Shown piece after piece: positions 5,147 to 54,320 of a stretch of DNA of 64,000 nucleotides. How positions within the stretch are numbered: position 1 is the stretch's first letter; the number at the start of each line of letters is the position of its first letter. Both the position numbers and the translations under genes were made by a program. Source of the stretch: Euglena gracilis. Lineage: Eukaryota. The DNA lies in NCBI GenBank assembly GCA_039621445.1, contig CP154954.1, forward strand, positions 29,707,411 through 29,771,410. The letters run 5' to 3'. Below the pieces are notes generated by a model that worked only from the letters and a program-made list of their open reading frames with translations, searched no databases and was not told the origin of the DNA.

Positions 5147-8100
5147 GTGTGACGTTGTGCTTTGTCTGCAAGTTCCGGGTGCAACAGAAGTGAGCTGGCG
5201 GATTCCCTCAAATTTCCTTTTTTTGTGAAACACTATTCAAAAATCTACCCCCCCCCCCATGCCCAATGAACAAATGCCTCTGACGTTTGTCACCTGAGTG
5301 TTCATGGGGGGTTCTCCCTTTTGGCTGGGGGCTATGAGGTGTATTTTTTTTATAGCCAAAAATGATTTGTGACCACTTTTTTGCATACACATCCTTTCAA
5401 AGAATATGAGTGAAATTTTCATTTTGGTATAAAAAAAACCTCCTCGAAAAGGGTGGCCGAAAAATGGCTCTCAGATCAAGAATGCACTGTTGCAACCTGT
5501 GAGGAGAACCATACTGGTAGCACAGTTGGATTTGCAGGCATGTATGGATGGTCTTATGGTGCCATGGGGAGGCGGGGGAGGTTGACTCTCCCACCCGCAG
5601 GTGGGGATCTATACCATCAGAAATTTTTACACCCACATCAAAATGTCACCCCACAGAATAAAGGGAAGGAGTGACCTCTGCCAAGCATGTAAGGTTTCTG
5701 GGCTTGGATAACAGTTGGGGGCGGGGGGACTGTCGACCCCACCCACCAGGGCATTGTGCACAACGACGTTTGGCATTTGTCGAATGCCTCCGCACATTTT
5801 TTTTTGCTTATTTTGCACCTTGTTTCCCCTTATTGTTGTTCTTTTGTATTGAGGAATATGGAAGCCGTGTGCATATAAGAGTGGTTGGTGTGTTGCGTAC
5901 AGTGGTCTGCCTCTTTTCCCGGTCGGCTCTCAGCCCCCTCAGAACACCAGTTCTTTGCTCTTTGCTCGTCTTCTGGTGCGCTGCCTCCCCAGGGACGCCG
6001 TGCTTCACGGTGGATGGGTTCAGGCACGTCCGCCCCGAGTGTCAGCACTTCTTTCTCACGTATGTTCACGGCGTGCAAGCTGCCATCTTCACAAGCTACA
6101 CACTCTGCGTGCACAATGAAACAGAGCCGAAGGCTCGTCGGATGGTTTGAACCTTTCATGGGACCCAAACCTTTTTGTATGATCCCTTAAGGGAAAATAT
6201 TTCTTTCAATCAAAGTTAACTTTGATCAATGGAGGGTGAATGTTGTAAATAAATTGTTCCCCGTATGTGTATGTGTGTGAGTGAGTGAGTTGCGTGTCTC
6301 ATGTTTGCTGAAGGGCACCATTCTCTCTGAGGGAGGGGCATGGGACATGATCTGAGGCGTCATCCAGAGTTGAATGACCCACCCAAATCGATCGGGGTGG
6401 GTCTTTTTCCCGGCACCTGTAACCCCAAAATGGAAGGAATCTTGCCCACAGAACGCCGCTATGCAAAGCCATTTCCATATTCAGTTTTTTTTGCTCCAAA
6501 AACTGGCACCAGGGGTATGTAGCACCCCAGTCTATTCCTCTTCCTTTCCAGTCACTTCCACACGGACCACTATGAGGGGCTGCGCAAGACGTTCCATGCT
6601 GGCACCATCTGTATGCCTCAGCATACCCACCTGCATGGAATATGAACAATTTTTAATGAGCTGACTTGCTGCATTTAGAAATGTGTATATTTCAATCTGA
6701 TTCATTGTTGTGATTGTGAAAATTGCCACGTCCACATAGGCAAGTGTTGCACCATTTTGGTGTAGTTTGGGGCCCTTTTTTTCGGTTTGTCTGAAATGTT
6801 TTTTTCAATGAATCATCAGATGTGCCATTCTGCAACTCATTTCCAGAGTGCCAGTTCCACATTTGAATGAGTGTGTTTTGACGATCTATCTAAAGTCATT
6901 TTTTTGGACAAAAGCTGCCAATTAATTGACAAATTTGTTTGCAACCAGGGCAGGCAACCATTTTTTTTTTAGTGTTGGACCCCGGGGGGGGGGAGAGGGG
7001 AGGGGGGTGGGTCCGGCCGAGCCCCCCCCCCCCCCGGAGGGTCCCCCCAGAGGGGGGTGGGATATATTTTTCAGTGTCGAAGGCGCGAAAATTTTTGAAA
7101 AAGGTGCTATTTTTAGCATTTTCGCGATTTTTGGCCTTTTCGGGTAAAAGTGGGTTGGGTCCCCGGGACCTCACCCCGGTGGTGGGTGGGTGGGGGGACC
7201 CCCCCCCCCGGTTTTAAGAAAAACCCGTTTGCAACCTCTCTGACCCATAAAGCTCTGATGAGACACCAGATTCGTTGTTCTTTGCAGAGTCACACAGGAA
7301 GCATCTTTTAAAATTTTAAGCAATGGAAGGGAGGCGTGAATTTGAATTGTGCAATTTTTCGCACGTTTGGCATTTTTTCTGTTTCTTTTTTTTTGCATGC
7401 CCTTGGAGGAAGGATGTACACGGGATATTTTGTGTAGTTTCAAAGGTTTTTGTAGCTTTTCCCCCCTGCCCCATGGACACACGCACTTGTCTGACAGAGT
7501 TAGTAAATCTGTTATCAAATTTCAATTCAGGGGAATATCAATAAAAAAAATAGCATCAATCGATTGTCGAAATGATTTTTTGTATTTGGCCATGAGATGG
7601 CCACAATTCAGCTGCAGGAATTGTGAAATTTTTGTTGTTCTTTTTATCCAGGGGTTTATGTTTGAGTTCAGGAATGCAGCCTCACAGTTGATACATCAAA
7701 ATCTGTTTCTAGCCATTTTCTTTAAAAGCGGCCTTTTTTTTCAAAGTATTAGGGATCTCAGTGACAAATGCGTATAATACGGTTTGTGCGTCATTAGTTT
7801 GTTTGTTAGTCAACAGTCCCCTCCTCGACCTCTCCAGACTGCTCCCCGATGACGGCCACCCTCGTCACCCACGTCCTCGGTGTCAGCCCGGAGGTGGTCC
7901 GGCCACTGCCCCTTGACACCGAGGTGGACGTCTGCGGTGTGCTCCGCTGTGGCTGCCCCCCCCCCCCCCGCCGCCCACCCAGGATGGGGGCAGGCAGCTC
8001 CCCAGCTGACCACAAAGCACCGACGCGCATGTGGTCGCGCATTTCTTGAAAAGTCAACACGTCTGTGATTCCCCGGAAATTGGACGCGTCGCCGTGGCCG

Positions 8101-11100
8101 GGCAATTCAACTCCGGATGGGCCGCGGGATGGATTTTGGTTGGGACCGCGTCGCGTCCGCATCGGGTGGCGGGGCCGGCAGGCATCCGGGTGGTGGCGGT
8201 GGACGCGAACCACTGCCCCGGCGCGGTGATGCTGGTCTTCCATACCCCCGCCGGCGTGGCCCTCTTCACCGGTGTGGTGGCCCCATCCCCTCCGTCCCAA
8301 GGACCCCCCCCCCCCCAGGGCCAGACTGCAATCTCAGGCGATACCTTCACCCGGGGGGGTCGGGAGGTATGGTCAAAGTGCCTGAACACTCAGTCCAGAG
8401 AATGCATCTCTTTAAGGTTTTGCAGCCCCCCCCCAAGGGGCTGCTTAGCCTGCCGGGGTTTTGGTCCACCCCACCGCAGCACCCCAAGGGCCGGTGGGGG
8501 GAGGGTTGCTGCTAACCCAGCAAGCGCCTCTTGTTGTTGGGTCTGCCGATTTTTTTTGGGGGAAAAGTCACAAAAACGAGCCGCTTTGAGGGATTTAAGA
8601 GTTTACAGTGCTTGCTTGCTTGCTTGCTTGCTGTCGCATGATGACTTTTTTGAAATCAATTTATGGTTGCTCTTTTTTTGACAGTTTTCGAATTTCAAAA
8701 GCGCTGGCCAGCCCAAGTTTCAAGCCTGAGCCCAGCAACCCCCCAGGGGATCGTTAAAGGGCTGTGTGGTCCAGAGCACTCCGGCCCCCAAGGTGCCGGA
8801 AGCCATTTTTTTGTCAAATCAACATCCACCGACCACCGACCGTTCCCCTTGTGCCAACCCCTCCTTGAATCCAGAACAGCCGGTACGGAACCGCCATGTG
8901 ATGCCACGCCCAGGGGTGTGTACCATCCGCCCTCAGGGCTCCCTGTCCCTCCGCAGGGGACTTTCGGTACACCCCGGAGATGCGCCGCCACCCGCTGCTC
9001 CAGGAGCTGGCTGCGCAGCCGACGCTGTGCGGTGTGGACCGGCTCTTCCTCGACAACACGTTCGGTCAGCCAAAGGCTGCGTTCCCACCGCAGGCCGAGG
9101 TGTGTGGCACACCGCCCCGCGTGCACCGGGGACTCCGCTAATGTGCAGTCTCAGTGTCAGACACCCACACCCATACCCACACCCATGTGTGGAAGCTGCC
9201 CCTGCAGCTCGCTTCGCTCGGAGCCCCCCCTCTTGATGACCTTCCCCCTAGACTCCACCGCCACGCTCCGCGAGTCGGCGATCGAGGAGATTGCCGCCCT
9301 TGTCGTCTTCCTCCCCCTGGCGCCCGCCCCGCCTACCCGGTGGTCTCTCAGCCGCAGGGCCCGAAACCGGCGGCAGCACGCACTGCACGGAAACCCCCCG
9401 GCTGAGCAGCGGCGACCCCCTCGCGGCGGCCGTCAGCCGGAGCTCAACCAGCGGCAGCTTCAAGACTTACAGGAGGCGAGGACGCTGCGCGCTGCGGGAT
9501 GGACGATACCGGCTTCGGTGGAGGACACGTCCCTCGTGCGGGTGTATGACACCCGCCTCTCAGTGGACTGGTTGCGCGACGTGGCCGCGGAGGTACGGCT
9601 CATCGACGACCCGGACACGGTCGTGGTGGTAGGGGGCGATTTTGCCTCCCAGGCAGACATCTCTGATGCGTCAGCGCTCGCACCGGCGGTACCGCGGAGG
9701 TGGGGCCAGCGCCCCTCCCACATCATCATCCCGCCGCAGGAGCACCTCGGCGTCTGGATCCAACGGCTGCGCAGTCAACTCAATTTGGAGGACCCTTCCA
9801 CCGTGTACAGCATCGCCGCGGTGGTGGATCGGGACAGCTGCCCCAAGGAGCTCAGCGCCATGGCCCTGCGTCGGCTCCTTCCCGCGGCTGGCCCGCTCTT
9901 CGAGGACCGGCGGGTATCCGTGGAGGCGGTGGCGGTAACTGAGCGGCCTCCCCTCTTGCGCGTGCCCGCCTCTGAACGTCGGCTGCCCCCGGAGGAGTGG
10001 GAGAGGGCTTTCCTCGCCCGCAACAAAGTCCTCATGCTGCTGCATGTCCGGCGCCTGCCTCAGGCCATTCCGGCCACGGCAGATCCTCTGGCGCCAACGG
10101 GAAGGTGGATCCGCGGCTCGTTGCCGGATCCGGAGCCCAACCACCTCGAGCTCCTCCGGGTGGAATTTGAGCTGCCCCCGGCGACGCGGCAACGCAATGC
10201 AGAGCGGGAGCTGCGGCGCGCGCTGTCGAAGGTGGCGGGCGCGGTGGGGGTGGTCTTTGGTCCCGCACACCAGCTGCGGGGCATCCAGCCCACCCATGGC
10301 GGAGTGCTGGCCCTGCTGGCCGTACCGCGGACGGAGGCGCTGCGCTGGCTGAAGGGAAGCGGCTGTGGAGGCCTCTTCGTGAGACCATTCTGGACCCGCG
10401 ATACGAGCCCTTCACTTGAGCGGCAGCAGTTCAATCTGTTGTACCTCAAGAACAGGCGTGCGGAGGCTGCACGGTTGTGGGATGCCCACGACCTGCAAGG
10501 GGTGGTCGGCCTGCTGCCGGCCGAGAAGCTCGTGCGTGCGCAGTGCGGCCTCGGGAGCGCCGGCGGATGAGGTGCAGGCCCGCGTCCGGGTTGCCCTCCA
10601 AGATCCCCAGGCGGCAGTACGACAAGTGCAAGGTGCGGTGTGTGGTGGAGGCGGGGGCCGCTGTCACGCCGACCTCTGCGTGCGGGACCTCATCGCCCTG
10701 ACGGGTCTGTCCCGCTGCGCGACCTCGGTGCGGGCACGCTGCGGAGTGGTCGATGTCGCGTTGTACGCGACGTTGACAAATGGGGAAGTCGGCGCGTCTT
10801 CCAAGCCACGGGCGGCCCGCTCCTCTTCGACGACGGTGGCTGGGGCCGTTCTACGTGCTCCGCCGTGCTGACTCGCGCCGATCCCCCTCCCGCCGGCAGC
10901 GGTCTCGGCATCCCCCCCCTGCCGCCTCCGCCCACACCAGAGACCTTCCCGCCTCGCGATATGGGGCGGCCCGCGGCTTCATCCTCTGCCCCCGCTGCTA
11001 GTGCCAGCTTCAGCCCGCCCGCCGACGCCTCCCTCCTTCCGCGTGCCTCCCGCCGCTGCCGACGGGCCTCCGCGCGGCGCAGCCTGGGTGGGGGGGCATC

Positions 11101-14100
11101 GTTCCGCGGGGCCTCTGTCCCGACGGCCTCGGGGGGCCTGCTGGCGTGGCGGCTGCGTCGGCTCCCGCTGCCCGCCCCTTCACGCTCTCCGCCCTCCGCC
11201 CCGGGGGGGACGCTCTTCCGTCCCGCCGGCGCACGTGCCCGCCGCTCTCGCCAGCCGGCCCCCCTGCAGCCCGCAGCTCGGCGCCCACTCCGCCGGCCCG
11301 GACTCGCCGCCCCCCGTCGCGGACTTGGTGGTGGCTGGCGGTGGCGAGGCCCTTCACCGGCAGGCGGTGGAACTCGCAGAACTCCGCCGGGAAAATGCCG
11401 AGCTCCGTCGCCAACTTGCGGCCTCCCGCCCTGCCCCGTGCGTCAATCTCTTCCAGCATCAACCTTACGCGTCCCCGAGCCCCGCCCCTGCCCACCTGCC
11501 GGACGAGACCCTCTTGAGCCAAGACGAGCGCATCGCCGCCGCTTTGCATGTCCCGGAGCCCGCGGCTGCCGCGCGCCCCGCCACCCCACCCACGGACGTC
11601 GTCATGCGGGTGGATGACAGCGATGCTCGTGGCCGTGCCCGCGACATCGGCGAGGTCACCCCCGAGAAGCCGGCCGCGAAGAAGCCCCTGCGCGCCGCCT
11701 CGGTGGATGGCAGCCGCCATGTCTAGCATGGCAACGTTGGGGGCTCTTGCCCCCACCGGAGGAGTCCAGGCTCCCGTCCTGCGGATCGGGACCTGGAATA
11801 TGTCCCATTGGACGCCTGCAAAGGTGTCCGCCGTCGCCGCCCTCACGTTCGACATCCTCGCCGTCCAAGAAACCCATCTGGCGGCCGTCCTCGTGGAGCG
11901 CGCGCACACCACCGTCCGGCACCTCGACCTGCACCTCCATCATGGCCGCCCTGCTCCCCCGCTGGCGCACTCCGAGCATGGTCGCTCCGTCGGCGTCGGC
12001 TTCCTCTGCCGCCGGGGCCTCCAGGTATCCCCCATCGTCCCCCAATTCCCCGCGTGGTGCCGCCTCTCCCTGATGCGCCGCCTCCATGCCGTCTCCCTGG
12101 CCCCCCGCCCGGACCTCCCCCGCGGCCTCCTTCTGCTATCCGTCTATGCCCCCCTGGACCGGCAATCCGCGGAACGCGCCGCCTTCGACCTGGCCTTCGA
12201 GGAGCTGTCCCACTCCCTCGACATGCAGGTCCCCACTCTCCTTCTCGGCGACTGGAACGGCTCTGCCCTCCCGTCGCGCGACTATTGCAGCCGCTCCGGC
12301 TGCCAACGCCCGCCCTGCCCCCTCCTCTCCCACCTGACGGGTCCCGGCACCCCGTGGTCCGACGTCCACGCCACCCTGCTGCCGGAGCCCCTGCCCATGA
12401 CCTTCCGCTCGCCCCTCTCCTCCGGAGCCGTCGCCGCGTCCCGCATCGACCTGATCCTGGCGAACTCCGCCGCCCTCCCCCTGGTCCGCTCCGCGACGGT
12501 CGACGAGGACTTCCGCGACGGAGGGCACTCCCCAGCCTTTGTCTCCCTCACCCTCTCATCCGGCCGCATCGATTGGTGCCCCCCGCTGCCGCGCCCTCCC
12601 CCCCTTCTCTATGGCCCCTCCGCCGACCTCGCCTCCTCAGAGCTGTGGTCCGACCTGCTGCGCCGATGGACCTCCTCTCCGGAAGCCGCCGCCCTGTCCC
12701 CGTCCTCAGCCCACTCCCTGGAGTCCCTCTCCCGCGCCTTGCACGCCGCCCTGAACCGCCTGGTGGCCCTCGCCGGTGGTTGGTCTACCCAATCCTCCGT
12801 CCGCCGGCCCGCCTATGACTCCCCGAAGGTGATCCAGCTCCGCGGCGCCCTCTCCCTGCTCCATCGCCTGGAGAAGCTCACCTCCGCCCCACCGCACCCC
12901 GGTCCCTGGCCGTTCACCTGGTGCCGAATCCTCGACTCCCTCGATCACCGCGGAATACGTCTGCCCCGCACCTCCGTGCCGCTCCTGCGCTGCGCCATCG
13001 CCTCCGAAGCAGCTTCCTGCCGCTCGTCCCTGGATCGCGAACTCCACGCCCTCCGCCGTGCGCGAAACTCCCGATGGCAAGCCGCGCTACCACGCCTATG
13101 GCACGAACGCCCAGCCGCCGTCTTCCGGTGGCTCAAGGCGGAGTCCATCCCCTTCGGCTCCCGCCCCGTCCTCGACGCCTCCGGCCATCAATGCCTCTCA
13201 CGCCACGACGTGGACGCCGCGGTGCGGGCCTTCTGGGTGGACGAGGTTCTGCGTCAGCACGCGAATCAGTGCCCCACGGAAAGATGGACGGCCTTCGTCT
13301 CCTCGGAGTTCGGCCCCCACATCCCCTCCGCATCATGGCCATCGGCGTCCTGGTCCGAAGACCGCGTCCGGGCTGCCCTGAGGAGCATGCGCGACGCCGC
13401 GGCCCCCGGCATGAACGGCGTGCCCCTCGCCACATGGAAGGCCATGCCGCCGGTGTGGTTCACTGCCATCGCGCGCTTGCTCAACCTCGTGGAGCAGGAG
13501 CGGCGTTGGCCGCCGGAGTGGCTCAACGCCTACGTCGCCATGATCCCGAAGTCCTCTGGCGGCTCCCGCCCCCAGGATCAACGCCCCATCACCGTGCTGG
13601 AGGTGGTGTACCGCGTGTGGTCGAAGGGCACCATCTCGCTGTGGGGCCCCGTGCTCCAACAGTTCTTCCTCAGTGACGCCGTCTTCGGCTTCCGCTCCCA
13701 GCGCAGCACCCTCCACGCTGCCCAAGTCGTCTCCGACCTCATCCATTCCGCCGCCGCGGAGAACTCCGAGCTGTGGCTCGCCTCCTTCGACGTGGTGAAG
13801 TGCTTCGACTCCCTCCCATGGTGGGCAGTCTTTGGTACCTTGCGCCACGCAGGGATCCCGGCGGCCACCGTCGACTGCTTCGAGGCCTTCTACGGCTCCC
13901 TGCAGCGCCGCTTCCGCTACGGCAGCGTCGACGGAGCATCGTGGTCCGCCACTAATGGGCTCGCCCAAGGGTGCCCCGCCAGCCCAGACCTGCTCAACAT
14001 CCTCTTCGAAGCGTTCCACCGGTGGGCGGCCTCCTCCGGTTGTGGCCTCCGTCGCCGGCATCCACGTCGCGTCCCTCAGCTTCGCCGATGACCTCGTCCT

Positions 14101-17100
14101 CGTCGGGCGTAATGCGGCCGCCATCTCCACCCTGGTGGATGGCTATCTCCGCTGGTGCTCCCTCCTCGGCGTGCGGATCACCAAGGTGCAGCTCTGGTCC
14201 TCCCTGGGCTCGGGTCACACCGTCACCGTCGGCTCCTCCACCTTCTGCTCCGCCCCCGGGTTCCGCTTCGTCGGCATCGAACTCGGCCTCCCCAAGCCTT
14301 CTGCCTCCCGGACCCACTTCGGCCCCCGCATCCGCAACGCCCTCGCCGCCGCCAGCCGCCTCCGCTCCCTGCCTCTGCCCGCCGCCGTGTGCTGCACTCT
14401 GTGGCGGACCGCCGTGCTGCCGAAGGCTCTGTACGGCTGTCAGCTCCGCCGCGTGCTGCCCTCCGACCTCGCCCCGCTAGCCGCCGCCGGCAAGTCGTTG
14501 TTCCACAAACCGCCGCTCGAGCTCAACCTCTGGCGAAGTCCGGACATCGCCATGGGCCTCCCCCCGGGCGCTTCCGCCGTCCGCGCTCCCATCGCCGAGG
14601 CCCGCCTCCTGCAGCTCCGTTGGCTGCAACTCCTGGCCAACTCCCCAACCCTCGTCGGCACCATCCACCGCGCCGTGGCCTGCCCCGCTTCAGAATGGCA
14701 TGAGCCCTCCCCCGCCCTCCAGTCCGCCCTCACCGCCCTGGGCTGGACGATCCGGCGCAACCCCGCCTCCGCCCTCGCCGCCGCCTGGCCTTCCCTCGCC
14801 CCCAAGTGCTCTTTCCCCGGAGAGATCTCCCTCGCCCCCGCCGATGGCTTCCCCCTCCCGGAGGCGGCCTTCACCGACGGCTCCCTCGGCCCCCAAGGTG
14901 GTGCAGCGGTCTGGTGCCCCGACACCGCGACGTCCATCCTCCTCACCGTCCCCTCCCCGCGCAGCAGTACACACTGCAAGCTCGCCGCCCTGGGTTCCGC
15001 CCTCTCCCTCTGCCCCCCCGAGGTGTTCACCGACTCGCTGTGCTCCCTCTAGCTGCTCCGTTCTTGGGGCATGCGCCCGCTGTCCGCCGTCCTCCGCTGC
15101 CCGGACCGCTTCGATGTCTGCCACGTCCTCGCCCTCGCCCGCTCCTGCTCCTCCCCGCCGGCCCTCCGCAAAGTGAAGGCGCACGACGACGCGGCCATCT
15201 CCGCCGGCCACCCCCTGGCCTTGGGCAACGACTCGGCCGACTCCTTGGCGAAGAGGGCAGCTCACTCCCCAGGCCTCCCCACCTGGACCCCCCCTGCGGC
15301 ATGCCGAGATGCGGTCGACCTCCTCGACGCCATGGGCTCCCCGGTCCTGGACATCGAACAGCACTTCCCCCTGGCGTGGTGGGACCGCCAGCGCCGGAAT
15401 TGGGGGCCCCCCGGCTCCCGGCCGCGCCTCGAACCCCTCTTTCCCCCAGACGTGGCCTTCGACTGGTCGGTCTCCACCATCATCTTCGCCCGACCCTCCC
15501 TCCGCTCCAACGTCTTCCACCACCCTGTGGCCCCCGCCGTCATCAAATGGGTAGCCCGCGTGCGCTCGGGCTGCCTCGCCACCCAGGCTCGGCGAGTGCG
15601 GTGCGGCTTCGCCACGGACCCCGCCTGCCCATGTTGCGGTGTGGAGGAAGAGGACGACCTCCACCTGCTGGCTGGCTGTCCGGCCACCGGTTCCGCGGAC
15701 TGGTCGGTCGCCATCCCCGAGACCTGGCTGTACGCCGCCCGCCGCTGCGACCTCTCCATCCCCCCTCCGCCGGCCCCCTGGACCGCGCAGCACCACCTGC
15801 CCCTCACCGCCGCGCTCATCCCGACGTCCGCCCTCGCTCACCACCCGACACCCGCCGCCGATGCCCTCCGCTTCCTTCGCCGCCTGCATCTGGCCCTGGC
15901 CGAGCGCCTCGCCGAGCTGCTGAGCCGCCGCTACGCCCTCTTGCTGTCCCCAGACCACCTGTCCGGAGCCCCGCCCGCGTCCTCGTCATCCTCAGCCCCC
16001 CCGCGCCTCCGCCGCCCCTGCCCCCTGCCGCCGGAACGCCAGCTGACCGTCCCCGACCTCCGCCGGTTGGAGATCGCTCGCCGCACAATGCCCGCCCCCC
16101 CCCCCCCCCCCGCTCCGATCCCGCCGCATGGGGAGGCCCGGCGTCTCTGGCTCCGCGCCCGGCTGCTTCGCCTGCTGGCCGAGAACATGGTCGTCTGCCC
16201 CGCCCCCGCCGGCTGCACGGCTCCCGCCATCCTCGCGGTCTTCGAATCCATCACGGGCGAGCACTTCACAGCCTCCCCCGGCACCGCCGCCAAGGCTCGC
16301 GCCACAGCCATCGCCCGTGTCCTGGGCAACCTCATCCAGGAGGGTGCCCTCCTCTCCCCTCCCCTCGAACGTATGCAGCGGCAAGGTACCTGGTACTACA
16401 ACCGCGCCCCCCGCTCCGTCCTGGACACGGACCGCTGGCTCCGCTCCGCCCATGCCCGGGAAGCCGCACACCCGTCCACCGCCCTCCACGTCACCATGGC
16501 CTCCGTGGATGCCTCCCTAGCCGCGTGGATACGCGACCACCGCCACCTCCGTCCGGTCCCCCCGGAACGCGGCGAGTGCAGCATGGCGCTCCTCCTGCTC
16601 TGGGAGACCGATCATGGCCGCCCGTTCCCCACCACGGCTGCTCTCGACCCCTCGAAGGTACTATCCGGCTTCACCCGCCGCCTCCATGACCGCATTCGGC
16701 GCGAACCCGACCTCGCTTGGCTGCAGTTCAAGGATGTGCACCTGCCCTTGGCGCGTGGTATCCCCGCCTCGCATCACGTCCGCTGGTCGGTCCTCATCGT
16801 GGAGCCCCCCGCTGGCCCTGGAGCAGCGTGGTACACCGCCTTCGTCTCTCGATGGCAGTCCTACCTCCGCTCCCTGGTGGACCCGTCTCTCACGCCGGCA
16901 CCGCTCCTCCTGCCGGGGTCCGCCGTCTCCTCTCCCCAGCCGTCGGACTCGACGCAAGAAGTCCCAGCCCCCTCAGCTCCCCAGACGCCCCCGCCGCAGC
17001 ATCCCTCCGGCTCGGACATACCCATACCCCAGCCTGCTGCCCTGCCGGGCCGTACTCGCCCCCCGAGGCCGCCCCCCGCATCCCCACCCGGACGCGCCGC

Positions 17101-22335: not shown

Positions 22336-22439
22336 GTGAGTGTGAAGCAGTTTTCCGTTGGGGGTGATGTGACAGGGGGCAGTGAGCACCCCCTCACCCC
22401 CCACCCCCACCCTGCCTTTCGCCGCCTTTTGGGTTTCAG

Positions 22440-32364
<9,925 letters not shown>

Positions 32365-33867
32365 CGACGGCTTCCTAAAGCCAGGGCGGTCCGAACCTGA
32401 AAATTTGAAGGAAAAAAACGAATCGAAAGCCTGTGTGTTCTGACGTTTTGGATGGGCAATGGTCCCAGGATGCCAGAAATCATTTTTTCACCCAAAGTCC
32501 ACCTGTTTTTTGCTACATATGGCCATTTTTCGGCGATTTTTCGTGTGAATTCTTCATTAAATGTGTTCGCACAGGATTTTTCAAAAAAAATTCACTCGGG
32601 GGCCGCCCTGCCCTGCCTGAAGATGAAAAAAAGAATGGGTGGCACGGCGAGCCAATGTTTTTCCGAAATGCTGCCACAAGGCGGATGAGGGGTATGTGGG
32701 GCGCATCATTATCCGGGGCCTCCTTGGCTCAGATGTGCATTTGGCCCAGACGTCCATCTCGACACATTAGTGCCCTGGCCCTGGGTAGTGCAAGGGCTGG
32801 ACACATTTGTTGTATGGTAGTTGGTGGCTATCTGCCGCTCCCCCCCAACACACACACACACACACAGGCACAACTCTCACCACATTTGAAGTCCCACAGC
32901 CACCGCACACGATGTGTTTCCTTCAACACATCGCTCCTCTCCCCAATCCCCAACATTGCTGGTGGTCCACCCATGCCTGTACCTTGCCCGAAGGAATGCC
33001 GGGCAGGCCTCAGATGCACAGTCACAGAAAGCGGTACCATAACACAACCCCCCCCCCCCGCTAATGCTTCTAACCTCACCACAACACCACCCAGCAGTTA
33101 GTTGGATGTCGGGATGGAACCATGCTTATTTTTTTTTGTAAATTTGGCAGATGTCCTGCACCGTCAGAAATAGTTTTTGAGCAAGGCCAACTCCCCCGCA
33201 AGGATATGATTGGACGTTCCACCATTCCAGAGAGAGAATTTCTGCCACAAAGAACAACAATGGGTTTTTTTTTAAAAAAAAATAGGAGAACTTTGCCACA
33301 TCTCGATTTTCTTGGGCCAGTGGCCAGAGCCAAGCAGTACGCCGTGTTGCAGGGTTGCACAACCAGTTAAGCGCTGGACCATACACCTCTTTAAGGTTTT
33401 GCAGGCCTGTAGGCCTGCCACCCCCCCCCCCACGGGCTCCGTTTCGGACGTTCCACATATAGTTGGAAAGCTAAGGAGATAAGCTTTCCAACCCATCTGG
33501 TCCCACGTCCAAATAAGCTGGGAGTCGACGGGAATCGGCGAAACAATACCCCCCCCCCCCGGGTGGGTGGCCGGGGCTGGCTGTAGTCCTGGCTCCCCGG
33601 CCGATTTTGACTCCAGCAGATTTCGGCCCAGCCCAGCAGCATCAGCACCCTTCCTCCCCGGGGGGGGGGGGGGATGCTGCTAGCCCAACTAGCCAGCCCC
33701 CTTTTTTTTGCTGGACCCATCCGAAAAAAATTTTCGAAGCGCCGGAAACAGGGTTGATCAATTAGCTGACTGTTTTTGGTCAACCGATTAAATTTATTGG
33801 GGCCCTCGGTTAACCGATTAACCGATCTCAGGGCCGAAAAAAAGGCACTCTCCCAGGCTTTTGGAAC

Positions 33868-34308
33868 CAGGCATTTGCTTAAGGGATTGCAGTACCCCCC
33901 CCCCCCGGGGGGGGCTGGACTGCAGCTAGTCCAAATTTGGCTAGTGGGATTTCTAGCAGACCCCCCCCCCCTGGGGGGGTCTGCTAGCAGGGCTAGCTAG
34001 TGGAATTTTTTTTCCCAGTGACCGGCGCGAAGCGCCGAAAATTTTTTTTGGGACCCCCAAAATTGGCCAAAAATGCCCGTTTTTGGCCATTTTTGGGAAT
34101 TTTTGGAACAAAATCAGCCAAAACCCTATTAAAAACCTCATTTTTCCTCCGGCGCACAGCGCCGGGGGAAAATTTTTTTTCCAGTCCTGGGGACCCCCGG
34201 ACTCCCCCCCCCCCCCCCGGGGGGGTTCTAGCTAGTCCATTTTTTCCAGTGTCTAGCCGATTTGCTAGCCAGTACCCCCCCCCCCCCGGGTCCTTAAGCA
34301 AATGCCTG
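33868..34308. mobile_element. hAT-like MITE, family A copy 1
   Basis: TIR CAGGCATTTGCTTAAGG / CCTTAAGCAAATGCCTG; perfect 8-bp TSD TTTGGAAC. Confidence 0.92.
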
Positions 34309-35721
34309 TTTGGAACCTCGTTCCATAGCTGCACCAGCCTCACATCGTTGTGATGCTGACATGTGAACCTGTTTTTTTTTTGCGGCTCCCCTGCTCTTTG
34401 TACCGTGCATTCTCTTCAGGCGGGTCCCCAGCACTTGTGGATCTCTGAGAATTTTTGTGAGCTTTTTTTGAGGAGCTTTTTATCTTTTTTTGAGGAGCTT
34501 TTTTTGGGAAGCTTCTCTTTTGACATTTTTTTTGCTTTCTTTTTTTGGAGATCCATCACCTTCAATCACACCCAAAAGAGCAGCATTCATTCTGACAAAC
34601 ATCAAGCCCCATACTCATGATGTGTCATGATGAGTGGCCCCCCAAAAAAACAAAGGAATCAAAAGAAAACTGATTCCTGCCTTTTTTTGTGGTCGTCCCC
34701 CCCCCCCAAAGTCCTTTTGCCCCCCCAAACAATCCAGGGCTTTGCTCTCCATTACCTTTTAACTGATTGGTAAACTGCACCCCCCCTCAATTAGTCAATT
34801 AATTGGGGGGGTCATGGTTAGTTAACTGACCGTTGGTTAACCAAACAACCTTGCTGGAAATTCGGGGGGACGGTCCAAAGATGGTCGGAAAATGGTCTGT
34901 TTGGAGTTTTTTTATTATGGGTTTTTGATGTTGTCACGTGCGCACGCTGAAGACTGTGTTTCCTCGTTATTTTTCTTTTTCCCCCAAAATTAGTTTCCCC
35001 CACCTGGGGAGGGGCGAGCTAGCAGCCCAAATTTCTAGCCCTTGCCAGCCCCCCCCCCCCCCCCGCGCAAGGTCCTTAAAGAGATCTACGCGCTGGACCC
35101 AAGCTGAACGTTGATTTTCTGTTAAATTTCTCTGGGGGATTCTTTTTTTCTTTCCAATTTTGATGTCGATTATTCCGAGCTCTGAACTCTTCGATTTGTT
35201 TCGAATGCATTGTTTTCCATCGTAGTCAAAGAAATCCTCCGTTACACCCAACCATTCTGGCTGGCAATCGCCTCTTCTTTCCTGTTTGAGTTTTTTTATG
35301 TCCAGTTTGCTTCAACCCCGAACAGGGTTCGTTGGCAATAGTGATGCAACAGTGGTTCTTTTTTCTGAACTTGGGCACTTTCTGAATTGAAACCCAGCTG
35401 AATATATTGAACATGTCGACAGCAATGAGCATAATTCTTGGGGTTCATAACCAACAATGTGTAATTTTTCTATCACGGAATCCAAAGTCCATTGTCACAC
35501 AAGATAGGCAGGAGGGGCAGGATTTCCCCAAAAGTTGACAGGAAGGAGGTTTCGTCCCCCTGTCGGAGCAAAGGTTCTATTGTGTTTGGTGTTCCCCACC
35601 GGAGGTGGTATTTTCCTCTGTTTTCCGAAGAAGAAGAAAATTGGACCCCAGAATTGACCCCCCAGAAGCGGGTCCCCCCAAGCCCCCCCCCCCCCCAGGG
35701 GGTGGGTGGGTGGAACCGGAC

Positions 35722-36127
35722 CAGGCTTTTGCTTTAGGGATTGCAGTACCCCCCCCCCCCCGGGGGGGCGGGGGGGGGGCTGGACTGCAGCTAGTCCAAA
35801 TCTTGGCTAGTGGGATTTCTAGCAGGGCTAGCTAGTGGAAAATTTTTTTTCCAGTCACCGGCGCAAAGTGCCGGAAATTTTTTGAGACCCCCCAAAATGG
35901 CCAAAGATGCCCGTTTTTGGCCATTTTTGGGAATTTTTGGAACAAAATCAGCCAAAAACCCATTGAAAACCTCATTTCCACCTTGGCGCGCAGCGCCAGA
36001 GGAAAATTTTTTTCCAGTTGGGGGGACCTCCGGATCCCCGGGGGGTCTAGCTGGTCCATTTTTTTCCAGTGTCTAGCCGATTGGCTAGCCAGTCCCCCCC
36101 CCCCCCGGGTCCTTAAGCAAAAGCCTG
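35722..36127. mobile_element. hAT-like MITE, family A copy 2
   Basis: TIR CAGGCTTTTGCTTTAGG / CCTTAAGCAAAAGCCTG; perfect 8-bp TSD AACCGGAC; body clearly homologous to 33868-34308. Confidence 0.92.
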
Positions 36128-36316
36128 AACCGGACTCCCTGGGTCCTAACAAAAACCTCTGTGTTGGAAGTTGTCAGAGGCGTTGAAGGCCCCATGCCTT
36201 CCGCCGTGTGACCCCGGCCGTGCCGCCTCTGTCAGTGGCCGGGTCCACCCCTGGCCACCCCTTGCCCCCATTTGGTCGCAGCCCCTCCTCCCCACGCCCT
36301 CACCCTCAAGCCTAGG

Positions 36317-39300
36317 ATGGGGAAGCAGAAGGCCCGGGCGCCCCCCGAGGCTCCATCCGCTGCCCATCAGCCCTTCCGGAAGCGACCCCTGACGGGGGAA
36401 TTCCACCCACGGAGTCGCTTGAGCTGCAGGGGACCCTCCTCTTCATGGGGGTCCAGCCAGCCAGCCAGCAGCATTTGTCCAGTCCCCATCGAGAGTAAAT
36501 GCTGTCCTGCCAACTGAACCTAAAGGGCGGCTGGTTGGCAATGAATTTTCTTGTCTTTGGTGGGTGCAGAAATGGGTCATAAATGGGCAGTGGATCGAAA
36601 AGCTGGCCAGGAAGATTTTGGTCAAAAGATCGATATCTTGCAGAATTAGCCACATGTTTTTTTTGGACATCTTTGTGTTTTTTTATTTTTATTTTTGAGT
36701 CCCCAGTTCGACGCTGGGCAGGGTTTTTTTTCCAGCCCAAATCTGGCAGCCTCTGAGCTGGAGCCCCCCCCCCCCATGGGTCGTCAAGCAACGCCCTGGT
36801 TCCACCGCAGCGGAAGCAGTGCCGATGCGAAGGTCTACGATGCGGAGCGCTACGCCCTACAGCGGGTGTGGCCCGATGTGCATGGCAGCCCTGCATTGCC
36901 TGCCCCCCTCGGCTGCACGCCACGGTTGGGCAGCGTCTTCCCTGCGCATCCGCTGCGCGCATCTGCTGGTTGCGCACACCTTTTTTCGAGTGTTGTCGTT
37001 GTATGATGTAACCAGGAGGTCTCCACTAGCAAGCTATTGCTAGGCTCAATCGATTCAGACAGCTTAAGGCGGGATTTCGAGGACAAGAAGCATTCTTGAT
37101 TGAGTTTGGAGAAGGGAACACCCGTCATCTCCATTGAGGAGCGGGCTGGACTCCCATACCACGGAATAACCCCCCCCCCAGTTATAAACCAGGTTTTTCT
37201 CAGTGCTGAGCTATTTGTTGTCAAAAGTAAATGCCGGGTGGCTCGGCCTGGCCCGCCCCCCCCCCCCCAGGGGGCCAGCACCAGGGTGTATGGGAAGCTC
37301 CGCAGACATGAGGTAGGTGGTAGGGGGGGGGTGCCCACCCCCCCTCCTAGGGGGCAGGCCGTATTTTAGTTGGGTGCCGACCCCACTCCGGGGGGGTAGG
37401 GCACACGGAGTTAGCGCCGGCCATAAACAGACAAGAAGCCTTAGTGCAACTAAGAGGGTAGGGCACACGGCCAAAAGTGCCCTATCACAGACCCCGACGC
37501 CGAAGGCGCTGGGGAGCCAAAAATAGCCTATTTTCAAAGGAATGTGCCTGATCCGACCCCCCGGGGGGGGGGGGGGGTAGTGCCTGCTGGGCAGGCACCC
37601 CAAGGCACTCCGGACCCCCCCGTTGGCGGGTGGTTAAAAAAAACAGCCTGCTAGGGGGGTAAGGTGGTAGGGGGGGGGTCCCCCCACCCCCACCCCCCTA
37701 GTTTTGGAAGGGGGTTCCCCCACCCCCCCCCTTCACGCCGGGTGTGTATTTTAGGACCCTCTTGAGGCTCAGTATGAAATTTTGGGAAAATGGCCAAAAT
37801 TGGCCGAAAAATGGCCGTAACTCAGGCTAGGCAGGGAGTTGCGTGGAAATCAAAATACTGTCAGATGGAGAATTTTAAGGGCTTCAATTCAGGTCTCCGG
37901 ACATTTCCTTTGATTCCCCACCATTTTTGAGAAATTTCAGAAAAAATGATCTTTTGACCCCCCAAAAACAGCCGAAATTTTCGGTGACCGAAAACTGGAG
38001 GTGGAAGGGGGGTCCCCCCCACCCCCCCCAGTTTTGGAAGGGGGGTCCCCTCACTCCCCCCCCCCCGAAATTCACATACACGCCTGGCAGCCCCACAGTG
38101 CTGCAGTCAAGTCTGCAGCACTGTTTTGGACGTAAATCGCCCATAGCTTGGGCCAGGTGAGCAGTTGCAGGGAAATCAAAACACCGTTAGGTAGGGCGGT
38201 TTAATGGCTTCAGGTCTCCGACATTTTGCTTGATTTTGCTTCGTTTTCGAGATGTTTGTTGCGCGATCTTTTGGGCCCAAAAAAATGGCCAAATTGGCCG
38301 AAAAATGACCGTTGCAGGGAGTTGAAATAAAAAACGAACATCTTGGTATGTGGAACGTTCCTGGGGCTTTATTTTAGGTCGCCGATAATTTCTTTTGATT
38401 CCCCACCATTTTTGAAAAATTTTGGATGAATCGATTTTTTGACTCAAATATCAGCAGAGCCTGCAGCTCTGTTTTGGGGCGTAAACTGGCCATATCTCGG
38501 GCTAGGCGGGGAGTTGCAAGGAAACCAAAATACCGTTGGATTCAGGTCTCTGGGTGTTTTGCTTGACTTTACTTCATTTTCGAGATATTTGGCATTTCGC
38601 GATTTTTGGGCCCAAAAAAAAACGGCCCAAAGTGTTGCTGGTGTGCCTGTTTTTGGGCCCCAGACGGGTCCAGCCCGGCAGCCAGGTTCAACCCACCTCC
38701 CTGGACCCCCACCCCCAAGGGGGGGGATCCAGCCAGTCCCTTTTTCCCGCCGGCCGGCTGAACCCCCTGGGGAAGGAATTCCCTGCTCCCCCCACTTATA
38801 AATCATCAAAATGCTTTTTCTGACGAATTTTTGCCAAGATTTGCCAATTTGGCTATTTTTGGGGTTGGTTTTTGGCCAAAAATTCTTTGAATTTTAAACT
38901 CCCGCGTACCCCCCGTTCGGCTGGCCAACCAAACCTGATCCAACAACCCAGGGGGGTTTATAAGCGGGGGGGTCAGGGATGTGTGGGAAGCCCATTGGTG
39001 TTGAGGTTGGTCGTGGGGGGGGGGGCTCCCTACACCCCCAAGGGGGGTCAGGTGGTAGGGGAGGTCTGGATTTCCCATTCCCTCTTTCACAGGTTCTAAA
39101 AACAGCGAATTTTTTCTTCTGCCGTGTGTCAGCACGTGCAAAAAAACTGCCTTTTTCCCCTCATTTTGAGTGTATTGCACATTTTTGGACGTTTTGGTAT
39201 ATTCCACACAAAAAAAACAGCATTTTTGGATCTATATTTGTTTTGGATGAAAAATCAGGGGATTTCCAACAATTTTGGCAGCTTTTTTATTGTTCACATA

Positions 39301-42300
39301 ACCGAAAATTTTCCCAGCAATTTTTTGAGGTTGGTGGGGTTCCCCCCCCTCTGTGTTGGGAGGTCCAGACCCCCCCCCCACTCAGGGCTTCCCGTACATC
39401 CCTGCGGGGGGGGGGGGCTGGAAATCCCATCTTCACAAATTTCTCCGTTGAGGTCAAGTGTGCTTTGCCACCATTCTTTTTTGCTCGCGTCTGCCCCGTG
39501 TCGCCCGCCCGCAGGCACAAGAGCGGAAGCTGGCCAAGTCGGCGGGGCTGCGGCAGCGGCTGTTTGAGTACAAGAAGGTGCTCGGCCAGGCTGGGCGGTG
39601 AGGCACACCAAAGTTCCGGGAAATTGATAGCCTTGCAGCACAGTTTCAGGCATGGAAGGGCTCCAACCCAGAAAGACATTGAACAGATGGCGGGCTTTGG
39701 TCCCCCCCCCCCGTGGCCTGACCCAGGCCTGTGGGGGACCAGATGAAGTTGGAGCCGTCACCGTACATCCAGGAGCTGACGAAGAAGGTCCGCCACGACA
39801 AGGACAAGGTCCTGCGCAAGGCCCGCCCCGACCTCAAGCGAAAGTGGGAGGCGACGGGTGTGCCCCCCACCCCCGGGTGAGCTTCTGGAGCGGAGGGCTG
39901 TGAACAAGAGGACCGGAGGCGCTCTCAGGCGCCAAAGCAGCCCGGAAAAAGCCCCCCCGAGATGCCGTTCTGACTGGGTAAGAACACCCAAAAGGGTTGT
40001 CGTTTTTAGGCCAAAATATGGATGTGAAAACCAAAAAAACCATTTTTCGGTCATTTTTTGACCTTTTTTTCAGTTTTTTTTCGGCCCTTTGCACCGAAAA
40101 TTATTCCGGGCTGGCCCGAACTTTATTTCAGCGGACCCCTGGGTGGGGGGGAGTCCACAGCCCAGCTGGGAGCTGCTGGCTGGAAAGAAAGGTGCTGGCT
40201 GGCTGGACACCCGAAAGAAAATGGCACACAGGAGGCGTGATGCTCAGGGTTTTCTTAAGGACCCCCCCCGCGGGGGGGGGTCCTGTGCGCGGTTGGAGAA
40301 AGGTGCTGACGGGAAAAAAGGTGCTGGCTGGATTTTTGTGAGGGGGTGGGGGTCCATTGGGGGGGGGTCTGAATCCAGGGATACGTTCTTCTCCGGCTTA
40401 AGAAAACCCCTGGTGATGCTCCACGTTGTCTCGGGGAAAATCAGGTATGCAAGTGGGGCCAACCACTCCCCCCTTGACAGTGCCTGACTGGGTCAGCATG
40501 TGAGTCTGTTACCGACATTTTAGCCAGCAAAAAGGTCCAAAATCATAATTTTGGGAGCATGCTGATTCTGGAAATATGATATTTCTCGGTGAGAAATCCA
40601 AAACCGGCAAGCATTGACGAAAACTTTGGTATGAGGTAAAATCTGGTCCAGGATGCGAAATTTTCAAGTCGAAATTATTTCACAGCAGAAAGTGGGGGAA
40701 AACCTAAAAATGCCAAGAAATTGCCAAGTGTGTTGTAAAAATTTGCAAAATTTAGCAAGTTTTTGCAAACTTGCAACAAATAAACCCCCCCCCAAATAAT
40801 AAACCCCCCCGGTTTATTATTTGGACACCCGAAGTCGGGGTCCAGGGGGGGTTTATTATTTGGGGGGGGGGTTATTATTTGGGCAAAAATTTCGAAGTCA
40901 AAATTAGACCCGAAAACCCCTCCACAGGCTCCAATGGTCACTTTTTTGGCATTTTTGGGTTTTTTTGAAAACTGGGTGCTTTTTTGTCATTTTTTCTGCA
41001 CCAATTTGATCCATTTTTTGTGATTTTTTGCAACATTTCTGCTAATTTTTGGCTCTTTTTTTCTTTGTACTCACACCTGCCAGAGGGGGGGGTTTATTAT
41101 TTGGGCGGCCGAAGTCGGTCCTCAGGGGGGGTTTATTTTTTGGGGGGGGTTTATTATTTGGGGGGGGTTTATTATTTGGGGGGGGGTTTAGCAAAAAAGC
41201 ACCTGGTTGCCTTTGTGAAACTTTCAACGAATGGCCGGAAAAATAGCGGATATCAATTTCCCCCTGCCTTCGGTGCCGCAGTGCCTGCCTGGTACTGTCT
41301 GCTATGTACCCTATAGTGCCCTGGGGGTCGTCTCCGTGTGCAGCTAGTGTGTGAAATTTTTAAGTTCCCTCCACCAGGAGTGCATTTAATCTAAACCGCA
41401 ATTTCCGCAATTTTTCCGCAATTTTCCCGCAATTTCCTCGATTTTGCTACATTTTTTCTGCATTTTTTTCCAAAGGGCTCTGGTATCAATTCCCAAGGTG
41501 CCAGGTGTCCAGAAAAGGACCATTTTGGGCCCGGTTTTGGCCATATTTTGTCTGGGCCCCTGTTGACGGGTATGACAATCTGAGATTGTTGTATTTCTGT
41601 ATCTGTTACAGCAGATTGAATCCATCAGTTTTTTTCTGATAGAATTCATTCCGGAACTCAGGTGTGGGACAAAACTGCCTGCTTCTTAGGCAGTCGATCT
41701 GGCATTTCTGCTTTTTTCCTGTCGTCTTGCGTAATTCCGCAGAATTCCAACTTTTTTAAAAAGACAATCATCAACTTCAATTACAGGTTTTTTTATGCTG
41801 GTGACACTCAGAGGCCACCGTGCGTGGATCTTCGCCATTTTCCAGGGTGTTTTTTCCTCCACCTTTTGCTCCCCCCGGGTTAGAACCCCGGTTTGACCCC
41901 CAGGAAATGAGAAATTACTCAAAAATTCACCCAAAATTTTTTCTGTGCTTTCTTTTAAGCCCTGCATCCTGTGGAGTTTTTTGGAGTCAGGTACAAAAGG
42001 AGTGCATATTCCAACACAACGATCAACTGATTGTTAGAGATTTTTTTGTCTTTGTGTTTGATAGAAGAGATGAAAAATACATGAGGTCAGCAAAATACAT
42101 GAGGATAGCCACCAGTTTTTCAATTGACGTCTGTGACAGGTTAGCCACAGACACCCCATTTTGATAAACTGACCACTTCAAAACCAACCAACAGCCTTCC
42201 ATGCCAGCCTGTTTGGAGCTGGAAAATGCATGTGAAATTGTATGGATAAGGTGTATGGACAATGTCTCCTGTCCTTAGAACTTGAAATCACAGACAGCAT

Positions 42301-43125
42301 GAAAAATAACTGCTCTTATAGCTTCGAAAATGAGTTGTATTGGTCCGCTCGCGCAACTGCGTAAATAAACCATTAACACGATTTGTTTGCATGCTTGTGC
42401 AAGCGGACCATTCAAGAATATCCGCAACATTCCTGGGGAGGGGTGGGACCGTTACGCCTCCCTGCGTGGGAGCGCCACCAACGTCGCCACTGACCCCCCC
42501 CCCCCGTCCGCCAGACGCCCCGGCATACGTGGATGACCGGCAGCGGCAGCTGTGGCGGCGGCGGGAGGCGACGCAGACCGCGCTGCGGCAACGGCTGGTG
42601 CAGCGCCAGCTCGACGAGCAGCGGCGGCAGGCGAAGGTGCAGGCGCGGAAGCAGAAGTCCCGCCCATCCCCCGCCTTGGTTGGCCGGGAGAGGGCCGGAA
42701 CCACTGCAGTTGGCAGCTGGCCTCCAAGGTGCTTTTCCAGGTTTGGTTGTGTGCCCATCTTGCCAAAAAAAATACTTATGAACCCCCGTCATTCATACGT
42801 TATACCCGATGTATAGTTATGGTTACGTATAGTTACACACATACAGTTATACCCCCAGGTGTACATTATTCTGAAAAACAAACAACACTCAATTTTATGG
42901 CCTGACAAAAGTTCAATTTGCACACAACCCAGAAAATTGCCATATGGCAACCTCGATTGCCCTGTTGTTTCCCCCCCAGCCTATGAGACAACAAAGGTTG
43001 TGCCAAGCCCACCGTGGGGGATGCACCGACGCTACGGCCTGCGGACGAAGAAGGGGCAGCCGCTGATGGACGTGCGGGTGGAGGACCTGCTGACCCGCGT
43101 GCAGAAGTCGGTGGGCAAGGCGTAG
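36317..43125 (+). CDS. Fyv7/TAP26 (CCDC59)-like rRNA-processing protein, about 6 exons (36317-about 36393 tentative, 36811-36865, 39515-39577, 39743-39857, 42515-42656, about 43020-43125)
   Basis: Basic, coiled-coil-like exons in consistent phase (AKVYDAERYALQR|AQERKLAK...YKK|MKLEPSPYIQEL...|DAPAYVDDRQRQ...) ending in the family-type motif RTKKGQPLMDVRVEDLLTRV; TAG 43123-43125. Confidence 0.75.
37355..37650. mobile_element. hAT-like MITE
   Basis: Ends CAGGCCGTATTTTA / AAAAAAACAGCCTG; 8-bp TSD CTAGGGGG. Confidence 0.8.
40245..40412. mobile_element. 168-bp hAT-like MITE
   Basis: TIR CAGGGTTTTCTTAAG / CTTAAGAAAACCCCTG; perfect 8-bp TSD GTGATGCT. Confidence 0.9.
40781..41190. mobile_element. 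TIR element with TAA...TTA ends and GGGGGGTTTATTATTT subterminal repeats
   Basis: About 29-bp TIR TAAACCCCCCCCCAAATAATAAACCCCCC; 8-bp flanks GCAACAAA / GCAAAAAA (1 mismatch). Confidence 0.8.
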
Positions 43126-53501: not shown

Positions 53502-54320
53502 GCGGCGTTTTAGAGACGTCGGGTTCAGGACAGAACCGGCGTCCCCACCCTTTGGTCAAAGGACACTCCCAGGGACCAATCTCGACCACTTATCTGCAAT
53601 GCCACGCCACTTTGCATTTCACCAAATTCCGGCGATCACGAGGGTATTTCTGGCTGTGTCAATCGTCCAAGTACAAACTCACCCCTCAATCGAAAGCTCT
53701 TTCATCAGACGACTGGCGATCACCACCAAATTCAGCCACGCTGCCTGGATCTCTTATTTTCTGTCACTGGGAAATCCTAATTTCACAACTCTGGTGCCCC
53801 TTGGACCCCTCAGGTGTTCGATTCGAAGAGAAAAAACGTTTCTGTAAGGTTTATTCAGCATCTCAAACCAAAAATAACTGAAAATTACCACAAATTTCGA
53901 CTAAGATTCTGGCCGATCCGACGATCGCGAGCGTATCTCGGGCTGCGTGCAATGTTAGGGTACCAAGTTACCCCTCGATCGAAAGCTCTTTTCAACAGAC
54001 GACCAGAGGTGCTCATCAGATCTTTCCACGCTGCACGGTACTCTATATCCAAATCTGAGCCAATTTTCACCAAATTTGGATATCCACCCCAGTGGTCCCT
54101 AGATGGAAAAATTCATTGTCCTAGATGGTTGAAACAGTCATACCAGCACCTTAGGGCCACTTTTGGGCACTTTTGGTGACATTTTTAGGAATGTAAACCG
54201 GACGCCGGGCTTTGGACAAAACCGGCGTTCCTAACGCCGGGCTTTAGGACAGAACCGGCGTCCGGAAAACCCGTGGGGGGGACGCCGGTTCTGTCCTGAA
54301 CCCGGCGTCTCAAACGCCGG
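53502..54320. mobile_element. Non-autonomous TIR element flanked by TTTAAA
   Basis: About 48-bp TIR (GCGGCGTTTTAGAGACGTCGGGTTCAGGACAGAACCGGCGTCCCC / GGGGACGCCGGTTCTGTCCTGAACCCGGCGTCTCAAACGCCGG); TTTAAA at 53496-53501 and 54321-54326; internal diverged duplication about 53620-53755 vs 53915-54045. Confidence 0.85.

Follow-up and report, generated by a model that had tools for sequence, protein, structure and literature searches.

The origin of the nonconventional introns of euglenids and the mechanism of their removal have been open since the 1990s. Knock-ins into EgGSL2 defined the code marking these introns as 5'-N3-CDG...CH'G-N5-6|R (PNAS 2025, PMC12501133). According to the available text of this paper, the 5' spacer N3 is strict and tolerates no change, N5-6 is allowed on the other side, the purine with which the exon begins serves as a functional signal, and a wholly synthetic 50-bp intron made by these rules gets spliced. 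The spacer lengths are thus given by the code, but not explained. Here we analyse a 64-kb stretch of Euglena gracilis DNA (contig CP154954.1; "the window" below means this whole stretch), which carries nine elements, MITEs (miniature inverted-repeat transposable elements) along with longer relatives, with terminal inverted repeats (TIRs) and target-site duplications (TSDs) of 8 bp. Their ends probably coincide with the signal of nonconventional introns for a common reason, namely that elements of this kind supplied such introns.

A general MITE origin, which a first-pass annotation of this DNA also mentioned as suggested before, was indeed put forward in 2014 (PMC3935182), before any transposon of euglenids was known. 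A 2024 review (PMC11282704, legend of Fig. 3D, as far as its text is available) marks CAG/CTG as TIRs and calls the repeats at the junctions TSD-like. The available text of PMC12501133 restates the MITE idea without TSD length or superfamily, the words "duplication" and "hAT" having zero occurrences in it. In the main texts of the literature searched there was no paper with free-standing families, with the 3+5=8 register or with a link to hAT or 8-bp TSDs, while the sliding-distance histogram of PMC12501133 (Fig. 1B) may already hold a relevant peak. Thus, the general reading of such introns as MITEs with TIRs and TSDs is already in print; free-standing families and the TSD register were not found there.

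Nine elements and their target-site duplications

The elements were read directly from the sequence, and three scans of the window were added. They are listed here with no strand assigned; intron numbers refer to an SNM1/DRMBL-like gene described below.

6946-7227: MITE-like, CAG..CCG, TSD TTTGCAAC at 6938-6945 and 7228-7235 (direct reading)
20599-21113: 515-bp AT-rich MITE, CAG..CTG, TSD AATTGCCC, TIR 15/16, in conventional GT-AG intron I6 (20250-21224)
29392-31320: 1929-bp non-coding TIR element, CAA..TTG, TSD GAAGGCAC, in conventional intron I19 (28406-31645)
33868-34308: 441-bp MITE, CAG..CTG, TSD TTTGGAAC, perfect 17-bp TIR, intergenic
35722-36127: 406-bp MITE of the 33868 family, CAG..CTG, TSD AACCGGAC, intergenic
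37355-37650: 296-bp MITE-like, CAG..CTG, TSD CTAGGGGG, TIR only 11/14, intergenic
38974-39404: new 431-bp MITE, ends CAGGGATGT.., TIR 18/20, TSD 6/8 (G run)
40245-40412: 168-bp MITE, CAG..CTG, TSD GTGATGCT, 15-bp TIR with a 1-nt indel, intergenic
53503-54319: new 817-bp TIR element, CGG..CCG, 47-bp TIR at 91%, TSD GTTTAAAG

Seven of the nine had been reported in the first-pass annotation, and direct reading reproduced their starts, their perfect 8-bp TSDs, the five CAG...CTG pairs and the two variants (CAG..CCG at 6946, CAA..TTG at 29392). The two added here are 38974-39404 and 53503-54319, the latter bringing in a third variant, CGG...CCG. Perfect 8-bp TSDs flank 8/9 elements; the exception is 38974-39404, where the duplication is blurred by a G run. 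A CAG start was registered in 7/9, and the inverted repeats span 12-47 bp. The TIR of 29392 (CAAGCACCTCTG) is perfect, and in the RNA fold of 40245-40412 the two ends pair with each other. Subterminal repeats are clustered in two elements: GTATCAC in 20599 (8 left, 7 right) and GATGCTGG in 29392 (10 and 6, respectively). Two members are less convincing. In 6946 the inverted repeat is very weak, almost none, and the direct repeat in fact extends over 10 bp (GTTTGCAACC), leaving the ends ambiguous; among the five CAG..CTG elements, 37355 is supported least well and is placed within a G-rich tandem palindrome.

Two observations independently fix the boundaries: the alignment of 33868 with 35722 covers both copies over their full length, starting at the initial C of CAG and stopping at the final G of CTG (79% identity), and the match of 55 DNA contigs from run X1 is lost exactly at position 40412, beyond which they diverge into unlike sequence. 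A chance origin of the elements was considered and rejected on two grounds. In the first scan pairs were anchored on CDG...CHG ends with at least 11/14 inverted-repeat matches; the 696 pairs obtained had 0, 1, 2, 3, 4, 5 and 6 flank identities out of 8 in 84, 177, 191, 134, 70, 27 and 8 cases, none at 7 and five at 8. The second scan started from the TSD (lengths 6 to 9, TIR at least 9/10; its left-maximal filter lost 20599 and 35722) and gave matches solely at length 8. Four were found, one of them a by-product of two related copies, and 30 dinucleotide shuffles gave 6 such matches in total at the same threshold. A BLAST inverted-repeat scan of the window added no further elements.

The set had been described as four unrelated families. 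By BLAST, only 33868 and 35722 are linked, which agrees with this description, but the terminal motif CAGG(C/G)nTTT(G)CTTAAGG together with C-run/G-run palindromes recurs in three elements (33868, 35722 and 40245) and at the right end of 6946, and this right end is like the terminus of 40245 at 13/19 positions in a count made by eye. There are at least seven sequence families within 64 kb, several of them at very high genomic copy number. Long C-run/G-run palindromes (CCCCCCCCGGGGGGGG) recur beside the inverted repeats of several families and also in flanking DNA (33600-40300 and elsewhere). They draw poly-C/poly-G RNA reads, with loose ends at 31939, 35049 and 35779.

All nine elements are non-exonic and lie in conventional introns or intergenic DNA; exon mapping is thus in line with the earlier statement that every copy is intronic or intergenic. 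Those from 33868 to 40245 sit between the SNM1-like gene and a small gene of two exons (42.2-43.2 kb), and 6946, upstream of the first mapped exon, is probably in an intron of the SNM1-like gene. Taken together, the elements are non-autonomous cut-and-paste DNA transposons with real termini, perfect 8-bp TSDs and non-exonic positions.

RNA and DNA reads were mapped to 25400-45399, and 20599 and 6946 are outside this region. The DNA depth (run X1) was 114-175 over unique pieces and from 47,000 to 1,170,000 in bins over elements, with 29392 reaching ~10^6 against ~150 for unique DNA. This points to a very high copy number of the elements, the summed contig depth being no copy count, since it is raised by C/G runs and by tandem repeats. 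RNA coverage of the elements was low, and a fraction of 0.88-0.91 of the mapped RNA reads continued into unlike sequence, that is, came from other repeat copies. Among the joints listed near elements, the two with any RNA read, 37329>37654 and 40208>40391 (one read each), were tried as products of splicing and rejected: they are imprecise and also occur in DNA contigs, which attributes them to paralogues.

No precise empty sites for the elements were found among the DNA contigs of 25400-45399. Some DNA contigs connect position 29380 via CA to sequence like that from 31346 onward, so that element 29392 and ~29 nt are absent, which implies a diverged paralogue or allele of intron I19 without the 1.9-kb element, not a precise empty site. 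Inside 37355 a stretch of 47 nt (about 37409-37455) is bounded by a 15-bp direct repeat GGGTAGGGCACACGG (region 37394-37469). More than 100 RNA reads in each of the runs X21 and X24, as well as 28 DNA contigs, match only this stretch and beyond it run into different flanks that resemble one another; the MITE seems to have captured a piece of some other expressed repeat. Likewise, 37 nt inside 29392 (30631-30667) are common to a very abundant RNA of the size-fractionated run X24, where the unlike flanks of 591 and 682 reads are consistent (agreement 0.99-1.0); this RNA is present in X15 too.

Intron code and the geometry of the elements

In an element that begins with CAG, ends with CTG and is flanked by an 8-bp TSD, positions 6-8 of the left TSD copy correspond to N3 and positions 1-5 of the right copy to N5. 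The duplication thus gives both spacers, and a cut at 5|6 of the TSD restores the exon. The first-pass annotation had arrived at the same register from a CAG/CTG spacing rule that it gave as established; this rule is published and now experimentally defined in the available text of PMC12501133, and the register follows from the arithmetic of the published code. That 3 and 5 make 8 is arithmetic, yet the sum matches the TSD length of CAG-ended elements of the same genome, which is not trivial. In silico, N3 and N5 are provided by the TSD in every element, the end triplets fit the cis-code in 7/9 elements, and the purine rule alone agrees with 11/16 element-orientations of the eight perfect-TSD elements. 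The full code is matched in 8/12 element-orientations by our own tally of the six perfect-TSD elements with CAG..CTG or CGG..CCG ends. The variant ends agree as well: CGG..CCG (53503) and CGG..CTG (6946, reversed) match two variant classes of introns, CGG-CCG and CGG-CTG, for which the available text of PMC12501133 demonstrates splicing.

Sequence preferences around the junctions give a further point of comparison. In the accessible part of Milanowski 2016 (PMC4770533), which deals with 55 introns, a purine stands at intron +1 in 51 and at exon +1 in 55, a pyrimidine at exon -1 and at intron -1 in 49 each, A at exon +2 in 43 and C at exon +3 in 30. This bears out Y|R as the pattern of both junctions (49-55/55 introns), which the first-pass annotation had given as established. 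In the eight perfect-TSD elements position 6 of the TSD is R in 6/8, position 7 is A in 5/8 and position 8 is C in 5/8. Under the 5|6 register these positions become exon +1..+3, and the R-A-C bias is alike in both. It looks like a target preference carried into exons, and we read it so because the copies in the window are under no splicing selection. The same source describes a newly gained gapC intron found in one E. agilis strain only, the junction direct repeats of which are 8 nt and exceed those of the other introns studied; its authors invoked break repair.

Based on this data one can assume, with fair though incomplete confidence, that the MITEs and their one 1.9-kb relative were mobilized by a transposase with an 8-bp stagger, most likely of hAT type, and that their ends are at the same time the signal of nonconventional introns. 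A transposase making an 8-bp staggered cut would have inserted the elements, and their ends would be recognised by the intron machinery as its cis-signal: a stem closed by CAG/CUG, preceded by 3 nt and followed by 5 nt and then a purine. An exonic copy in either orientation would then be cut from pre-mRNA together with one TSD copy (the last 3 nt of the left and the first 5 nt of the right), and excision of the element with one TSD copy would restore the reading frame. The N3/N5 rule would reflect the 8-bp TSD at the level of RNA, and most CAG-CTG nonconventional introns would stem from such elements. None of the copies in this window acts as an intron itself.

A wider proposition, which in our judgement is evenly balanced, is that most euglenid CAG-CTG nonconventional introns (this type making up more than half of all E. 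agilis introns) are exonic insertions of hAT-like MITEs, N3/N5 being the imprint of the 8-bp stagger, and that a stem-measuring excision system evolved or was recruited and made the insertions harmless. A bolder version, with an excision machinery itself derived from a transposon, has no support here. Free-standing families with 8-bp TSDs would explain the numbers 3 and 5. They would also account for the "slidable" junctions in most such introns (direct repeats accompany 69.1% of E. agilis nonconventional introns in the available text of PMC12501133) and for the tolerance of thousands of exonic insertions. They make a direct test of the idea possible, for which a knock-in assay has been published and genome and RNA-seq data exist.

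Eight nonconventional introns of the window allow comparison within the same DNA; N3/N5 spacing is present in 6/8. Those needed here are the following.

22243-22682: nonconventional intron I9, ends CAGGGC/GCCCTG, CAG at +3..+5, CTG at -7..-5
25182-25231, + strand: 50-nt nonconventional intron I13, AAA-CAG...CTG-ATGGC|A
27682-28327, + strand: nonconventional intron I18, AAG-CAG...CTG-GCTGC|GAC
42660-43025, + strand: 366-nt nonconventional intron of the small two-exon gene (X15 RNA contig, depth 512)

The fold of I13 leaves exactly 3 nt unpaired at the 5' side and 5 nt at the 3' side (z = -3.9). In register 1, I9, I13, I17 and I20 have a terminal or near-terminal helix with the 3' overhang longer than the 5' one by 2 nt. 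In I9 the ends are moved one position outward, giving overhangs of 2 and 4 with the +4..+6/-8..-6 pairing retained (AGG/CCT). The intron 42660-43025 is the sole one observed directly in RNA. It is GT-AG in none of its 4 registers, and its 10-bp stem is closed by CAT/ATG with an overhang of 3+4 instead of 3+5.

Several observations weigh against the proposed link between elements and introns. None of the nine copies is exonic, so that none occupies the place of an intron, lying between exons and being absent from mature RNA, and none of the 8 nonconventional introns of the window resembles any of the nine elements by BLAST (0/8). In the predicted register no clear TSD relic was seen in the window, where the six N3/N5 introns, all old, have 2, 3, 2, 2, 2 and 6 identities out of 8, the single 6/8 lying in a C run. 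T at exon -4, predicted by the palindromic target bias, occurs in 0/6 introns. Overhang sums are 6 in I9 and 7 in 42660-43025. Y is found at TSD position 5 in just 2/8 elements; therefore the Y|R pattern is a splicing requirement, not a target preference. In the published sets, 38.8% of E. agilis nonconventional introns are outside the code (available text of PMC12501133) and intron positions +2 and +3 are unconserved (accessible part of PMC4770533). As weak evidence of the same kind, no copy-removing RNA joint was present among the best-supported joints listed, which are mostly from DNA contigs. These negative points fit old, decayed insertions and other intron classes; equally, they leave the link undemonstrated here. 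The first-pass reading of the MITEs as ready-made introns is partly supported, by the geometry and the concordances, and splicing of such elements is a prediction.

Type of transposase and competing origins

The elements share with hAT transposons the 8-bp TSD, CAG termini and, in 20599 and 29392, clustered subterminal repeats. TIRs of hAT elements typically begin with CAG or TAG. The target consensus of hAT is 5'-nTnnnnAn-3' (PMC10368747), and in the TSDs of the window T at position 2 and A at position 7 were registered in 5/8 each, that is, in 10/16 half-sites of a small sample (P = 0.0008), the top score among 16 symmetric tests. Assignment to hAT is likely on these grounds, but unproven. 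What counts against certainty is the absence of a transposase domain from 300 window open reading frames of at least 74 aa (the scan was made outside low-entropy frames and both retrotransposon regions) and the presence in the draft genome of E. gracilis of two Merlin families whose TSDs are also 8 bp (available text of PMC8101967). Besides, element termini gave 0 matches in two metagenome scans and one viral scan, and a hAT report for Euglena was not found in the literature searched. The statement that 8-bp TSDs are the hAT signature was therefore too strong.

The same facts feed a rival that we consider rather unlikely: the link with introns may be true, but the transposase with 8-bp TSDs may be of another type, Merlin, P-like or Mutator-like. 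Merlin has the host and the TSD length in its favour. Its TSDs are 8-9 bp, a length that the elements share, and according to the available text of PMC8101967 all its TIRs begin with GG, which was found in 0/9 elements of the window (CAG, CGG or CAA instead). Thus Merlin is disfavoured as less likely, and the agreement of the TSDs with nTnnnnAn speaks against non-hAT enzymes in general.

It is unlikely that we are dealing with ordinary MITEs, causally unrelated to nonconventional introns, CAG...CTG and 3+5=8 being a coincidence and introns arising otherwise, for instance through double-strand-break repair (Milanowski 2016). This explanation agrees with the lack of an exonic or spliced copy, with the dissimilarity of the MITEs to the 8 nonconventional introns of the window and with the near-chance identity of putative TSDs in old introns. 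It is also in line with the published role of junction Y|R and the purine as functional signals, not relics, and with the opinion of the discoverers of the 8-nt repeat, who ascribed it to break repair (accessible part of PMC4770533). However, it has to attribute to chance five independent concordances, namely those in the end triplet, the sum of the spacers, the classes of variant ends, the 8-nt repeat of a young intron and the R-A-C bias, and break repair leaves terminal inverted repeats unexplained.

The reverse direction, in which former nonconventional introns spread as circular RNAs via reverse splicing or retro-insertion, is very improbable: excised introns do form full-length circles (available text of PMC11282704), and a circle would carry N5+N3 = 8 nt, but each copy has its own distinct 8-bp duplication on both sides, as left by a staggered DNA cut and not by carried-along sequence, copies are present in intergenic DNA that transcripts cover hardly or not at all, and the subterminal repeat arrays are typical of transposase binding.

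Host locus and relation to known systems

The genes of the window that surround the elements are as follows.

7849-32266, + strand: SNM1/DRMBL-like gene, 22 mapped exons (protein mapping)
42206-43210, + strand: small two-exon gene for a basic coiled-coil protein

The 22 exons at 7849-32266 (+) are identical to 637/642 residues of EP00667_Euglena_gracilis_P005109 (EG_transcript_5142), by which the DNA belongs to E. gracilis or a strain very near to it, and the 21 mapped introns comprise 14 conventional (GT/GC-AG) and 7 nonconventional ones. The small gene is the only well-expressed locus in 25400-45399 (X15 contig depth 512), and a Pfam rRNA_processing match (E = 2.8e-5) probably comes from its last exon. 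Conventional intron I3 accommodates a GC-rich (~70%) non-LTR retrotransposon (long interspersed nuclear element, LINE) with endonuclease and reverse transcriptase at 8650-17300 (+), the closest database proteins to which are 50-74% identical. A second reverse-transcriptase fragment is located at 58480-59540 (+). Long (GT)n/(AC)n and related microsatellites occupy parts of the SNM1-like introns (22750-23240, 25270-25390, 27470-27600), and the nonconventional intron I17 (201 nt) is mostly microsatellite repeat. Rfam and tRNA scans of the window gave no match.

Among described transposons, the elements are closest to non-autonomous hAT elements (Ds-like elements and hAT MITEs, with Hermes as the studied transposase), being alike in the 8-bp TSD, short imperfect CAG TIRs, subterminal clusters and the nTnnnnAn target. 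They differ in having C-run/G-run palindromes beside the TIRs, in one family with CGG..CCG and one with CAA..TTG ends, and in that no transposase with matching ends was found among window reading frames or, for termini, in the collection scans. Merlin of E. gracilis shares with them the host, the 8-bp TSD and near-perfect TIRs, but its TIRs start with GG and it carries DDE_Tnp_IS1595 (available text of PMC8101967), neither of which was seen in the window.

Euglenid nonconventional introns, as described in the available texts of PMC12501133 and PMC4770533, resemble the elements in end triplets, paired ends, 3+5 spacing, CGG classes and R-A-C after the 3' junction. In contrast to these introns, the MITE copies are not between exons, their excision is undemonstrated and their TSDs are intact, whereas the introns of the window are without intact TSDs. 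A parallel to the proposed conversion is offered by introner elements of Micromonas, Aureococcus and dinoflagellates (PMC11282704, as far as its text is available), where insertion of a TIR transposon with its TSD also yields a removable intron. Introners, however, supply or co-opt GT/AG for the spliceosome and have TSDs of 3-5 nt, while for the elements described here removal would proceed by a non-spliceosomal CAG/CTG-stem pathway, with an 8-bp TSD split 3+5.

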